Positions 40,642 to 46,536 are shown, numbered from the whole stretch's first letter. The stretch: 62,019 nt of DNA, filler included, from Thelocarpon superellum (GCA_026025795.1; 8 parts of 8 records of this genome joined end to end with filler, not necessarily neighbours in it), one strand, 5' to 3'. The notes: generated by a model not told the origin, from the sequence alone. Translations and numbers: made by a program.

Positions 40642-41719
40642 TTACGCCGCCATCGCCACGGCGCTTGCCCTCGACGGATCATCCTCACCCTCCGGCAGCA
40701 ACGCGTATTCGTGCTCGCCATTCTTTTCAAATTCCGCCATGTCCAAGGCTACGACGACGCTCTCGCGTACCACTGTCTCCTGGTCGTGCAGGAACTGTCG
40801 AAGCATATCGTCCACTCCAGGCTCATCACCCAGGCTGCCTAGAGCCTCGGCTGCCTCGTGTCGCACCATGCCCACTTCCTCCGTATTGCTCAGCGTCTGG
40901 TATAAGCTCGGAATGGATGCTGGATGCGACAGCTGACCGAAGACGAAAGCCACCTCGTGTCGGAAGAGCGCGGACGGATCGTGGAGCCCTTTGGCCAAGG
41001 CATGCACGGCCGGCACTGCCGTTGGTAAGTCAGGTGGGGAGCTGAGATCACGCAGGCTGAACATGGCGCGGTATCGCTGGAAGAGGGGCAATTCGGTGGA
41101 GAGGAGCGTCCTTTCGAGGTCCGGAATAGATGGGGTTTCGGCCGTCCGTGGTAGTGAGGGGGCAGGATCAATAGATGTGAAGTCGCTATATTGCCAAGCA
41201 ATGTCAACTGGGTCCACTCGTTGGTCGAGCCATGGTCCACGCCTACCTCGGCCGTAATCGCTCATCCTTGCTTTGCTGGGAGACTAGCCATTCGAGTCGA
41301 TCGACAGCAATCTCGCACGTCTCCCTGACGACCGTATCCTCATGCGGATCGTCACGACACTTCCGCAGGAGAGCTAGGCTATCCGTGTCGCCCAAGGCGC
41401 CGAGCGCCTCAGCGGCCTCATGACGGCATATGGCCTCCTCATGGACGTCTTCCAGCCGCCCTCGTAAGAACGGGGCAGCAGCTAAATTGTTCGTCTGGCC
41501 GAGACAGTATGCCAGCTCGTGCTTGAGGAGAGACGACGGCGTGCTGAACGTCGCTGCAATGCTGCGGATGGCAGGGAGCGTTTGTGATGTGGGCGGCTGG
41601 AGAGAGCCCAAATGTTTCAGGGCGAAGAGTGCACGGAAGCGGCGTGCCAGTGGAACGATCTCGGAGATGAGCGTCGTACGCAAAAATTCAACCTCTGCCT
41701 CCATTCTCCTGTCATCCAT
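40642..41719 (-). CDS. LIA1: Deoxyhypusine hydroxylase
   Basis: RFRALFALK, four HE motifs (LLKHELAYCLGQ, RHEAAEALGA, FRHEVAFVFGQ, VRHEAAEALGS), S|DFTSIDPAP. Intron 41246-41186. Confidence 0.96.
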
Positions 41720-41966
41720 CAGTGTCGAGGTCGGCGAGCGACAGGAGCATGGTCGGTTATTGGTGCATTTGGGGATGATCCTCCAAGAACTTTTCGGTAG
41801 GTTGGACTTGAGTCATCAACACCGCCGGCCTTTTAGCGCGGGGAGCCCTTGTGAACGTACCTCCTACATGGTGGGGTGCCGCTCTCAGGTCTATTAATTT
41901 TCCTTCTCTTGACTCGCGCCCTTCCTCGCCACATCATCGTATCGCGAGATCGCCCAGCACCAAACC

Positions 41967-42504
41967 ATGGGTTCCGTCGTCCTGCCCCATCTGGACTGTG
42001 GATGGAAAGTCGATCAAGCCATCTTGTCGGAGGAGGAGCGTTTGGTTGTGATCCGCTTCGGCAAGGACGGGGAACCACTCTGCATGAGACAAGATGAAGT
42101 GCTCTACCGTAAGTAAGCCAAGCAAGACGGCCACGACCAGATCGTTGACGGCGGTATCGCAGGAATCGCCGACCGGGTAAAGAATTTTGCAGTCATCTAC
42201 GTGTGCGACAATGAGCAAGTGCCAGATTTCAACCACATGTACGAACTCTACGACAAGGTCACCCTGATGTTCTTCTTCCGCAACAAGCACATGATGTGTG
42301 ACTTTGGCACGGGAAATAACAACAAGCTCAACTGGTTGTTGGAGGACAAGCAGGAGCTGATCGACATCCTCGAAACCATCTACCGCGGCGCCAAGAAAGG
42401 ACGAGGTTTGGTCGTCAGTCCGAAAGGTTGGTCCGACACTTCCATCCATGGTCAATTTGATGCTGACCATTGACGTAGACTACTCCACTCGATACCGCTA
42501 TTAG
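41967..42504 (+). CDS. DIB1: U5 snRNP thioredoxin-like protein Dim1/Dib1 (TXNL4A)
   Basis: MGSVVLPHL..W.VDQAILSEEERLVVIRFG..MFFFRNKHMMCDFGTGNNNK..YRGAKKGRGLVVSPK|DYSTRYRY*. Confidence 0.97.
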
Positions 42505-42795
42505 AACAGAGTCCTAGAGAAGAGTGGTCAAATCGAAATTGGGGCGTGGAGTTGAATTATGTGCATTGCCCATGGAGTTTGTGATGTTAGCACGACCATA
42601 TGTGGCGGTTCATGGACCTTTAACAATATGTATATCAACACCTTCAGTCTACGTAAGGTGTTGTTCATTCCCCTGGAAGGTTGCCATCACGTACAGACGA
42701 GGAATTGATAAGCAGTGAGAAAACAGGTGAAGTGGTTGGTAAGAGGTTGACAACGGGGATTATTCAGTGTAATAAGGCGTTCCTGGATCGACAAC

Positions 42796-42930
42796 GGTTG
42801 TGTAGTGTAGTGGATATCGTACGTGCCAACAATTAAATTGCTGATGTAAACGATGCTAATACTCTCACAGACATTGGATTCTGATCAATCACAAATTCCA
42901 ATAACCCCGGTTCGATCCCGGGCACGACCT
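42796..42930 (+). tRNA. tRNA-Gln(CUG) with two introns: a 52-nt spliceosomal-type intron at 23/24 (42819-42870) and an 11-nt canonical intron at 37/38 (42885-42895)
   Basis: Joined exons give 72 nt: GGTTGTG TA GTGT AGTGGATA TCAC A TTGGA TTCTGAT TCCAA TAAC CCCGG TTCGATC CCGGG CACGACC T. All four stems pair; A box TAGTGTAGTGG and B box GGTTCGATCCC are intact. Confidence 0.92.
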
Positions 42931-42933
42931 AAG

Positions 42934-42938
42934 TTTTT
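42934..42938 (+). terminator. RNA polymerase III terminator (T5)
   Basis: TTTTT three nt after the tRNA discriminator base. Confidence 0.8.
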
Positions 42939-43010
42939 GCAATTTCCACGTCGAATCACGGTCCAACATGGTTGAAATGTTGCATTCGTAATTGCTTGGC
43001 CGTCGCGACG

Positions 43011-46000
43011 ATGCAGCCGGAGGTGGAAGAGATTCAATCGGGTGGCCAACTACAAAAATTACTGAAATTTCGACAAGATACCTCTTTTCTCAAATCAGGT
43101 GTGTGGGGCCAACGGATGTTCACATAAAGAGACCGCCCTCTGATTCTCGGCTGTAGCCTACGGTCAGTTCAAACTTTTTCTGGACCCGTTGGAGCAGAAG
43201 ACGCTCCTGGGGAGGGAGTCATTGGAGCGGCAGCGAATTCTGAAAGAATACCTGGATCTCGAGGACGAACGGAGTGGAGAAGATGATGGCCGGTATCTGG
43301 CGTCGATCATGCAAGCATGGGCGCAGGCGTCTCAAAACAACAACGATACGCTCTTCTCGACCATCGCCGAAGTACTGACGTCGTTCCTGCGCATCATCTC
43401 CACCAAGATCGACTTCCGGGATCACGGTATCCGAGCGTGTCGTGCGCTACTCCAGCCCGCTCAGCTGAAGCTCTTAGCCAGAGGCACCTCAACCAGTCGT
43501 TCCAAGGAACGTGTACTGGGCTCCACCCTCGCCTTGCTGACCGAGGTGGTGAGCTTTGACGGAGGTAGCCTAGCAAGGCGTGTTTACGATGTCCGAGAAT
43601 TTACCTGTCAAGGTCTGGGACGAAATCTTGCCCTGCGCGGTGACGCGTCAGGCGCATCGAAGGATAAGAGACAGAAAAGCTCAGTCCGCCACAACGCGTT
43701 GCGATATCTCTTCGCCCACTTCCGCTTCCAGACGAGTGCCAATAAGAGCGATCTCTTAGGTCACCGCGACGTCATCGCTGGCATCTTCCGCGATCTTGGG
43801 GAAGATACGCCGGAGCTTATTCATGATGTCTTGACCGGCATCCTCGAGCACATCATCCGCGATGAGAAGTTGCCTTCCTTCTCCAAACGTCGCGTTTTGA
43901 CCGACTGGAGTCTGGGACGCGTATCCAGTCTCTACCGGTACAAATCACTGACGGTGAAGGAGCGGCCTCTCGAGAAAGCCGTTGACGTAGAAGCTCACGA
44001 GTTTCTCCTGTTGGTCTGCACCACACCGGGACTTGGGGTGCTCTATCCACGATCCGGTTGGTATCCGCCCGGTACTGACGGCGATCTGGGAGATGACCAA
44101 GAAGACTCGGATGATGCCGACGCCATTGACCTGGGCCCAGACGTTGGTCCGAGATCCCAAGGATTCGGCGGAGAACTACCGTTGCGCAATTCCACTTTGT
44201 CAAAGTTCATCCAGACGCTTCGTCCGCAGACGTCGACGATGCAGAGCGAATTGATTCTGGCCATCTTTCGCGCGGCGCCGGAGCTGACGGCCGACTACTT
44301 CGCTAAGAAACAGCATGTCGCTCTCGACCCGAAGCTGACGACGGCATGGATTGGGTACTTGGCCTTCATCCTCTCCACCGTGCAACTCCCTATGCCCACG
44401 TTCTGCGGTCCGCGCGACGGATATGCCGCCTCGCCGCCACCGATTTCGGTGGCGAGCGAGAACATCTTGCCCACTGTACTGAGCCGCAAAGTCTTGACTC
44501 GGTGTTTGACGCAGAAAGTGCCGCTGGTAACCTTTCTTGCCCTTCGTTTACTCATCGTCGCCTTTGAAAAGCTCCAACAAGTGCTGGATGCATTCCGATC
44601 CGCGTCTAGCCAAGGGCTTCGTCGATGGGAGGAAGGAGAGATCAGGCTCATCGAGGAGTTTTGTCGTCGTTGTCCCAAGATGAGCCATGTGATCACGGTC
44701 TTCCGAACGGTTTCGGAGGAGAAGTCAATGCAGCGCGAGGCGGCGACTCGCCTACTAGAGAAGTATTACGCGGTGATTCCGCAGGTCGCTCTGGACGAGA
44801 AGTTCGACGTCTCCAGTCCCTTGACCGCAAGCCTTCGGCGGGTGGCGGACCTGGGAACTCCGCTCGTCAATCAAGAGATGCGCCCCCTCGAGCTCGAGCG
44901 TCTCTTGCATATCGCCCGATATTCACCCGATATGCGGTGGTTCAACAAATCCGGTTCGTCCCCCTGTGATGCTTTTCTCCGGACGTGCCACTAAAAGTTG
45001 CAGAGGGTGTTCCTCTTTCGCCTTTCACGACGCTCGTGTCGCTCGCCGTTGGGTCGTCGCGTAGCCTCCCCATGACCTCGGTGCGGCAGGTGCTCGCTTT
45101 TGTCTCCCACGATCGACAATTGTTCCAAGAACAGACTGCCGTTCCGGCTCTGAATGCTCTCACTGCAAGTCTGCCGTCGGACTCGTTGAGCCCTTGCTCG
45201 CTCGCGACCTTTGTATTTCTAGACGCCTGCGTGGGTCGCTATGTGCGCAAAGCCGTCTATTACCAGGGCGGGTTGGAGCGGCTGGTGATGGAAGGTCACG
45301 ACGGCCCAGGTGGGGAAGGAGAAGCGGCGGCAAGTCCAATCTTGGTGACACTCTGCGAGCAGTGGCCGTTTATCGTCAAGGAGCCATCCGTGGACGCCGA
45401 TTCCAAAGATACTATTGCCCAGTGGCTCGCGCGGCTTTTGCAGTTCCTGCACCAGATCGGAGAAGATCGCGCGACTCTCCTCCGGATCCGGGACATGATG
45501 AACGATGAGAGCGGAAGCGATAATCAGCGGATGGAGTTTACACGGGTATTTGCACGGAACCAACACGCTGGCTTCATCCTGGTCGATGATCCGGTCATTG
45601 TTGCTACTGGCAGCACTGAAGCAGCTGCAACAACGGAGATGCAAGATCGAGACGACGCCAGCGAAGACGAAGAGCTCATGAACGTGGAGGTGAGCAGTGA
45701 AGATCCGGCAGCCTTGTTCCGATGGGTCAAAAAGGACGTACAAGCGGTGCTCGAGGATGGCGATGCGGCTGGGCTCATCCGCTGCCTGTGCTCTGAGGAG
45801 ATCGGCATACGGCGACAGGGTCTCAGCGGACTTGCGCGGATGGTCGTGCGGATGCAGGAATCAGGGTATGCGGAGAAGGAGATGGTGGTGCTTCTGCTCC
45901 AGGAGCTCCTGCACACGGCCAAGGGCTTGGCCGACGACGGGGTGCTGCCCACGTACCTGGTCGAGTTCGCGGCGCGTGCAATTCTGGTGCAGACAGACCC

Positions 46001-46536
46001 GTCGCATTTCTTGTACGGCAAGGTCAACCAGTTCCTGCACCGCGGTCCCACGTGGGATGCGGACCGGGTGCCCTTGCTCCGCCAGATCCTGCTCCAGCCG
46101 CCAGAGGCCGATGACGCTTTCTTCGACGAGGTCGTATGGCTGCTGGACATGGTTATCCTCGGCCTGCGCACGCCGCAGGTACGTGCCAGTCGTCAGCGAG
46201 AGACTGCAGCTGACCCGATGGATCTAGGATCTGGATGCTTATCGACGAGGGAACGTCTTTGAACGATTCTTGTCTCTGTACAATGCCCCGCATCTTCCGA
46301 CGACCCTCCGACGACAGATCCTCCAGCTCCTGCTGCGTGCCTCGAGCATCGAGGGCGGCAGTACGACGCTTATCACGCGCGTCGGCGTGTTGAGTTGGCT
46401 ACGTGGGCACCGAGGCCGAGACGAAACGGCTACCGAGCGGCAGTTGCAGCATTTGGCCCGGCGCATCTGGGACACGTGCGACCAGGGACGGGTGCAGACA
46501 TGGAGTGGCGGAAGCATCATGGGCGTTGTCGTGTGA
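43011..46536 (+). CDS. URB1: Nucleolar pre-ribosomal-associated protein Urb1/Npa1
   Basis: MQPEVEEIQS..LQKLL.FRQD|..FKLFL, LLTEVVSFDGG, IFRAAPELTADYF, DPKLTTAWIGY, ENILP..LTRCL, HFLYGKVNQFLHRGPTW, GGSTTLITRVGVLSW. Introns 43099-43156, 44953-45003, 46179-46227. Confidence 0.9.

Follow-up and report, generated by a model that had tools for sequence, protein, structure and literature searches.

The locus at positions 42796-42930 (+) is, on its predicted fold, a gene for tRNA-Gln(CUG) that carries two inserts of different kinds, an mRNA-type insert of 52 nt in the D arm and an intron of 11 nt in the anticodon loop. It lies in a window of 62,019 nucleotides from Thelocarpon superellum (GCA_026025795.1), the window being the whole stretch of DNA that was analysed, including the filler between its eight joined parts. 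In the best reading, to which we assign a probability of roughly 0.65, this is a working and probably Pol III-transcribed tRNA gene, from whose transcript an mRNA-type intron would be removed by the spliceosome, followed by TSEN splicing. The original prediction had described two intron classes in one tRNA gene with a 14-nt exon between them, and this description holds at the level of predicted features, as a canonical anticodon-loop intron stands beside a D-arm insert with spliceosomal signals and without a bulge-helix-bulge (BHB) motif. The coordinates, the middle-exon sequence and the G+C count of 20/52 that had been given for these parts also agree with the sequence.

42796..42930 (+): tRNA-Gln(CUG) gene, 135 nt, three exons and two inserts; mature length 72 nt before CCA (ARAGORN on the form spliced in silico)
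42796..42818 (+): exon 1, 23 nt; 5' strand of the acceptor stem, 5' strand of the D stem, D loop and nt 22-23 of the D-stem 3' strand
42819..42870 (+): mRNA-type (spliceosomal-looking) insert, 52 nt, between tRNA nt 23 and 24 in the D stem
42871..42884 (+): middle exon, 14 nt, nt 24-37, with the anticodon CTG at 42881-42883
42885..42895 (+): anticodon-loop (37/38) intron, 11 nt; presumed TSEN/ligase substrate, the excision of which is needed for the cloverleaf (ARAGORN); position by eukaryotic convention
42896..42930 (+): exon 3, 35 nt, nt 38-73; 3' strand of the anticodon stem, variable loop, T arm, 3' strand of the acceptor stem and discriminator T (ARAGORN)

After removal of both inserts in silico, ARAGORN calls a 72-nt tRNA-Gln(ctg) with a perfect cloverleaf, consisting of an acceptor stem of 7 bp, a D stem of 4 positions (3 pairs and T13-T22), an anticodon helix drawn with 6 bp and a T stem of 5 bp. 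Removal of one insert leads either to no call at all or to a mis-call, namely a spurious 'Ser(act)' or an 'Arg(tct)' that has an odd long arm. The mis-called tRNA-Arg(tct) with a long extra arm is the gene from which the D-arm insert alone has been removed. Since the cloverleaf requires the loss of both inserts, the 52-nt insert is placed between nt 23 and nt 24, within the D stem on its 3' strand. The boundaries can be set in one way only, as a shift by +1 or -1 alters the spliced product. The 11-nt insert has a T at both ends and can slide by one base without any change of the product, and 37/38 is thus its conventional placement. This smaller insert is found at the canonical position of eukaryotic tRNA introns, whereas the 52-nt insert at 23/24 is not. 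A tRNA-derived SINE or a tRNA-like fragment as the source of the signal was ruled out by the complete cloverleaf that is restored on splicing.

With its default settings, ARAGORN reports 0 tRNA genes in the whole window, and the intact locus is still not called when anticodon-loop introns are allowed. An Rfam scan of 42500-43200 at E<=10 returned two weak unrelated matches; the tRNA gene was missed and no intron family was found in this region.

The elements that are expected to direct transcription of the gene lie within and directly behind it.

42803..42813 (+): A-box-like internal promoter element (tRNA nt 8-19), judged by its likeness to the consensus
42909..42919 (+): B box (GGTTCGATCCC), the first 10 bases of which correspond to GGTTCRANYC, the sole match to this motif in the whole window
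42934..42938 (+): T5 run resembling a Pol III terminator, 3 nt past the gene and the only run of at least four T in 42700-43000

Inside the tRNA gene, no run of at least four T is present. The features of a nuclear tRNA-Gln(CUG) gene, namely a cloverleaf with the anticodon CTG, the A and B boxes inside the gene and a run of T behind it, are all found, and by its sequence the locus resembles an ordinary Pol III tRNA gene placed in the gap between divergent promoters. No stop-to-stop ORF of at least 80 aa overlaps 42480-43143. On the upstream side, the neighbouring minus strand has HEAT/PBS-lyase-repeat ORFs (40642-41812), and on the downstream side an Npa1/Urb1-like ribosome-biogenesis gene begins near 43144 on the plus strand (Pfam Npa1 E 2.4e-95, NopRA1). 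Between these two divergent housekeeping genes, the tRNA gene is located about 210 nt upstream of the Npa1-like ORF and on the same strand. A COX24_C protein is encoded elsewhere in the window (Pfam), which likewise indicates a fungal source. The G+C content falls from 58.8% in the window to 45.2% in the intergenic gap and 38.5% in the 52-nt insert.

The 52-nt insert contains the following signals.

42819..42824 (+): 5' splice site GTACGT, in agreement with the local GTRNGT consensus
42841..42845 (+): alternative branch-point-like motif CTGAT, its branch A lying 26 nt upstream of the 3' splice site
42856..42860 (+): best branch-point motif CTAAT, its branch A lying 11 nt upstream of the 3' splice site; motif class and distances are also found in local candidate introns
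42868..42870 (+): 3' splice site CAG

The 5' splice site, the CTRAY branch motif, the YAG end and the length are all those of a U2-type GT-AG intron at the sequence level, and excision at the exact bonds of the 52-nt insert, for which there is no slid version, restores the D stem. For a chance test, the combination of a GT[AG]NGT start, a CTRAY motif 6-35 nt from the end and an AG end was counted. It occurs in 3 out of 123,936 52-mers when both strands of the window are counted together with its real introns, and in 16 out of 2,000,000 random 52-mers with the composition of the insert, corresponding to a chance of about 1e-5. A group I or group II intron was ruled out by the size of the insert (52 nt compared with a catalytic core of hundreds of nt) and by the Rfam scan.

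The signals of the insert can be compared with those of introns in the protein-coding genes of the same window, one of which is validated.

46179..46227 (+): comparator spliceosomal intron in the Npa1/Urb1-like gene, 49 nt, GTACGTGCCA..CTGAC..TAG; 3.3 kb from the tRNA insert

This comparator is validated by the split of the Pfam NopRA1 match, with profile positions 4-141 matched up to 46178 and positions 143-199 matched from 46228 on. The first 10 nt of this intron and of the tRNA insert are exactly the same, and identities of 8-9 nt with the start of the insert are found at three more candidate donors (6111, 10508, and 22294(-)). A heuristic search of the window for introns that join ORFs, which is noisy in this GC-rich DNA, yielded 56 donor/acceptor combinations at about 30 places, with 46179-46227 as its one validated member. 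Plausible candidates from this search have lengths of about 49-65 nt and combine GTACGT, GTGAGT, or GTAAGT with CTAAC, CTGAC, or CTAAT, with a distance of about 9-20 nt between branch and acceptor. With its 52 nt, the insert is inside the local range given by the validated intron (49 nt) and by these heuristic candidates. A likely further intron near 44954-45003, with a non-consensus donor, was missed by the heuristic search: at about this place the frame of the Npa1/Urb1-like gene shifts between the ORFs 43144-44994 and 44970-46262, and a GTTCGT donor, a CACTAAA branch-like motif and then CAG are present.

Two further claims of the original prediction concern the composition and the junctions of the insert. 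Its AT-richness relative to local introns was confirmed, as its G+C content of 20/52 (0.385) compares with 0.47-0.77 in all 56 heuristic candidate combinations, which form an unvalidated set. This base composition, below that of every local candidate intron, counts against the best reading. A lack of target-site duplication had also been claimed, and no duplication of at least 2 nt is in fact seen at the insert junctions. When the 52-mer was compared with the 62-kb window, neither a second copy nor any other match of more than 10 nt was found.

In the minimum-energy structure calculated by RNAfold, exon 1 pairs extensively with the 52-nt insert. At 42865-42869, the insert reads TCACA before its final G, which is the 5-mer made by the spliced junction (nt 22-26), and the unspliced RNA could thus pair the 5' strand of the D stem with the intron's 3' terminus. 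This repeat may be due to chance, as the second gene described next is without such a repeat.

A second gene of the same architecture was found in a scan of metagenome contigs for tRNA nt 8-23 (two D-loop positions free) followed by GTNNGT. The requirement for GTNNGT after nt 23 placed same-site inserts of other kinds outside the reach of the scan. Five loci were obtained, four of which (L002-L005, with L003 and L005 identical in sequence) are chance matches in GC-rich coding-like DNA. The remaining locus, L001, has the following layout.

L001:589-706 (-): tRNA-Gln(ctg) gene with exon 1 of 23 nt, an insert of 41 nt, a middle exon of 14 nt (CTG), an anticodon-loop intron of 5 nt and exon 3 of 35 nt

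The 41-nt insert of L001 reads GTAAGT..CTAAC..AAG and interrupts the same 23/24 bond, and ARAGORN calls tRNA-Gln(ctg) after this insert has been removed. The branch point and the AG that restores the cloverleaf were outside the search pattern, and their chance occurrence is estimated at about 0.004-0.008. The gene is followed by a T9 run, and ORFs of at least 40 aa in L001 look non-coding. As with the window gene, standard tools gave little for L001, i.e. 0 genes with ARAGORN defaults and one weak miRNA-like match in Rfam (E 0.44).

The mature sequences of the window gene and L001 are identical at 50 of 72 positions. Among 21 stem positions that were compared, 7 are changed in both partners and 2 in a single partner; each gene retains all 20 standard pairs, and the T13-T22 mismatch is common to both. 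The changes in stem pairs between the two genes indicate selection on tRNA structure, since the 7 double-sided changes leave all standard pairs intact. The two inserts do not align beyond their splice signals. When contigs of prokaryote genomes were scanned with the same pattern, two bacterial chance matches (L006, L007) were found, and viral contigs gave 0 matches; neither of these collections includes fungi. The window gene and L001 are the only two known instances of a 23/24 insert, a small number that counts against the best reading, and being diverged they could in principle represent independent insertions rather than one old intron. The chances are about even that some fungal lineage has an old, conserved mRNA-type intron at 23/24 of nuclear tRNA-Gln(CUG) beside an anticodon-loop intron; in such a lineage the supply of the CAG decoder would need the spliceosome first and then the endonuclease.

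The public runs listed as containing the locus are of DNA, and assemblies from them cover the window gene as well. In the Logan assembly of run X1, which possibly contains the window's own reads, one contig of 782 nt spans 42784-43565 with 0 differences. Given this contig and the independent contig of L001, an assembly artefact is unlikely. Upstream of the tRNA gene, two haplotypes with depths of 59 and 92 are present in X1, which differ at 13 sites and by 3 indels in 42608-42813, and both of them run into one contig from 42784 on. The source of X1 looks heterozygous, heterokaryotic or mixed. Run X4, which has another organism label, shares several of the X1 minority alleles. At 42244-42304, the summed depth of X1 contigs is about 820 compared with about 135 in the flanks, and several <90% contigs from runs X1, X4 and X5 align, which points to a short element, repeated or widely conserved, within the minus-strand ORF 41934-42479; Pfam finds no match for this ORF.

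In the moss-metagenome run X2, a contig of 172 nt matches 42795-42818 (24 nt) and 42901-42930 (30 nt), skips 42819-42900 and has other flanks. Judged by these matches, it is a tRNA-Gln-like gene without the D-arm insert, either from a paralogous locus or from another organism. The reported lengths leave about 41 nt between the matched parts, compared with 19 nt expected without any intron, and an intron of about 22 nt in the anticodon loop is probable for the gene in X2. As this gene is without the 52-nt insert, uninterrupted relatives exist. In the runs X1, X2, X4 and X5, 42814-42934 is covered by no contig of a relative, and at the low depth of 2-5 this gap speaks neither for nor against the insert.

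The gene in X2 speaks for a rival reading of the window gene as a dead or dispensable copy, in which a spliceosomal intron or an intron-like sequence has landed in one of several tRNA-Gln genes and is not, or not usefully, removed, while the tRNA is supplied by intact paralogues. The two halves of the gene are identical in X2 and the insert is absent there, and the G+C content of the insert (0.385) is closer to that of the surrounding intergenic DNA (0.452) than to that of local introns. However, the window gene has all its stems, the A and B boxes, the canonical intron and the terminator intact. The same architecture in L001 (50/72 identical), in which 7 pairs show compensatory changes and none is broken, is hard to explain if insert-bearing copies decay, and a dead copy would need two independent recent insertions at the same phosphodiester bond of the same isoacceptor. 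The single contig that both X1 haplotypes share across the gene weakly argues in the same direction. A dead or dispensable copy is therefore regarded as unlikely. A variant of the best reading accepts removal by the spliceosome as real and assigns the precursor to Pol II, such that a transcript from the upstream or divergent promoter would run towards the Npa1/Urb1-like gene, be spliced co-transcriptionally and then be processed by RNase P and RNase Z. In favour of such a precursor are the usual coupling of splicing to Pol II and the place of the tRNA gene, which lies in a region of divergent promoters, shares its strand with the Npa1-like ORF and precedes this ORF by about 210 nt. An intronic tRNA-like RNA made by Pol II has been described for Arabidopsis GUT15 (PMC6152437). 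This reading is made quite improbable by the intact A and B boxes at a spacing tolerated by Pol III, by the T5 run directly after a gene that has no internal run of at least four T, by the same layout with a T9 run in L001, and by fungal U6, which is described as a spliced Pol III transcript (PMC5855946).

The D-arm insert might also be a non-canonical tRNA intron that is cut by the endonuclease at a BHB-like motif, as in Archaea, Cyanidioschyzon merolae and nucleomorphs, with GT and AG at its ends by coincidence. In C. merolae, D-arm introns are described as being removed in this way (PMC9602550, PMC3978253). The canonical BHB geometry, scored as two 3-nt bulges with cut sites around a 4-bp helix (3-4-3), reaches only 2/4 pairs of the central helix in the window gene and 1/4 or 3/4 in L001. 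In a relaxed form of the geometry, which was also scored, the best score was reached by 191 out of 300 shuffled-intron controls for the window gene and by 289 out of 300 for L001, and no BHB motif was found in the minimum-free-energy folds. The insert is thus not of the BHB type by its fold, and both inserts bear signals for donor, branch and acceptor, for which such introns have no need. BHB-type cutting is considered highly improbable.

For the working gene of the best reading, the following sequence of steps is proposed. Pol III transcription would proceed from the internal A and B boxes to the T5 run. Still in the nucleus, the spliceosome would then remove the 52-nt GT-AG intron of the D stem by way of GTACGT, the branch point CTAAT and CAG, and after this step the tRNA splicing endonuclease and ligase would take out the 11-nt intron of the anticodon loop. 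Splicing itself, the spliceosome as its agent, the order of the steps and transcription by Pol III are all conclusions that we infer from features of the DNA sequence. A point against this reading is that classic work in animal cells has found Pol III transcripts to be poor substrates for splicing.

The proposed order, with the spliceosome acting first and TSEN second, is made more plausible by the contacts of TSEN and by the location of the yeast endonuclease. In published structures, TSEN54, TSEN34, and TSEN2 contact the D-arm and the acceptor stem (PMC10485636), and the 52-nt bulge in the D stem sits in this interface. The endonuclease of budding yeast works on the cytoplasmic surface of mitochondria (PMC6169838), while the spliceosome is nuclear; the location of the endonuclease may be different in this fungus. 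In S. cerevisiae, tRNA-Gln(CUG) is encoded by a single-copy essential gene (PMC3664417). On the basis of these yeast data, the intron could persist by virtue of a single-copy essential host gene, as with single-copy U6. The 52-nt insert may have originated by reverse splicing and reverse transcription, as has been proposed for U6.

In a literature search that left most subscription journals outside its scope, no paper was found that describes a nuclear tRNA gene interrupted by a spliceosomal or mRNA-type intron; one apparent match proved to speak of 'non-spliceosomal tRNA introns'. In the textbook view, nuclear tRNA introns are located at 37/38 and removed only by a protein endonuclease and ligase, and the spliceosome handles Pol II transcripts. 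The 11-nt insert of the window gene and the 5-nt insert of L001 resemble such canonical eukaryotic nuclear tRNA introns in position and size. The 52-nt insert differs from them by its position at 23/24, in a region contacted by TSEN in the structures described in PMC10485636, and by its spliceosomal signals. More than one intron per gene and positions in the D arm are also described for tRNA genes of Archaea, C. merolae and nucleomorphs (PMC9602550, PMC3978253). The BHB introns in these sources have a BHB fold at the junction and are described without GT..branch..AG, whereas the reverse is found for the insert in the window, the fold of which does not exceed that of shuffled controls.

The closest precedent, as far as the cited survey and review go, is the mRNA-type intron of fungal U6 genes. 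The U6 gene of S. pombe is a single-copy gene transcribed by Pol III with an intron removed by the spliceosome (Tani & Ohshima 1989, in PMC5855946), and unrelated introns that have canonical signals are present in many U6 genes of fungi (survey of Canzler et al. 2016, in PMC5855946). Like these U6 genes as described there, the window gene encodes a small structured RNA with internal Pol III promoter elements and a short intron. The 5' splice site, branch site and 3' splice site are likewise canonical, the introns are otherwise unconserved between species, and the proposed origin is reverse splicing followed by reverse transcription. In contrast to U6, the host is a tRNA and not a component of the spliceosome, so that closeness to the active site is no explanation for the insertion, and the same RNA has a second intron for another machine (TSEN/ligase). 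Splicing of S. pombe U6 has been shown by experiment, while splicing of the tRNA is predicted from its gene sequence.

Spliceosomal introns have further been described for the U1, U2, and U5 snRNA genes of Rhodotorula hasegawae and for ascomycete rRNA genes (Takahashi 1993, 1996; Bhattacharya 2000, cited in PMC5855946). As with the 52-nt insert, these GT-AG introns bear mRNA-type signals and interrupt genes of structural RNAs, one class of which (rDNA) is not transcribed by Pol II. They belong to other classes of RNA, and none of the cases as presented in this review pairs two splicing systems in one gene of 135 nt.

If there is indeed an old, conserved GT-AG intron in the body of this tRNA, it would be the first of the nuclear tRNAs for which dependence on the spliceosome is shown, and spliceosomal splicing would extend to a second class of Pol III RNA besides U6. 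There would be an obligatory hand-over between two splicing systems on one precursor of 135 nt, and the decoding of the common codon CAG would be tied to the activity of the spliceosome. With respect to intron gain, a tRNA stands outside the spliceosome, so that the argument from proximity to the active site, as made for U6, does not apply. Routine annotation would list the tRNA of the window as missing or wrong. As neither the window gene nor L001 is detected by ARAGORN at its default settings or by the Rfam scan, fungal genomes may seem to be without this tRNA or may hide more such genes, and there would thus be a class of tRNA genes beyond the standard finders (ARAGORN, Rfam tRNA model).
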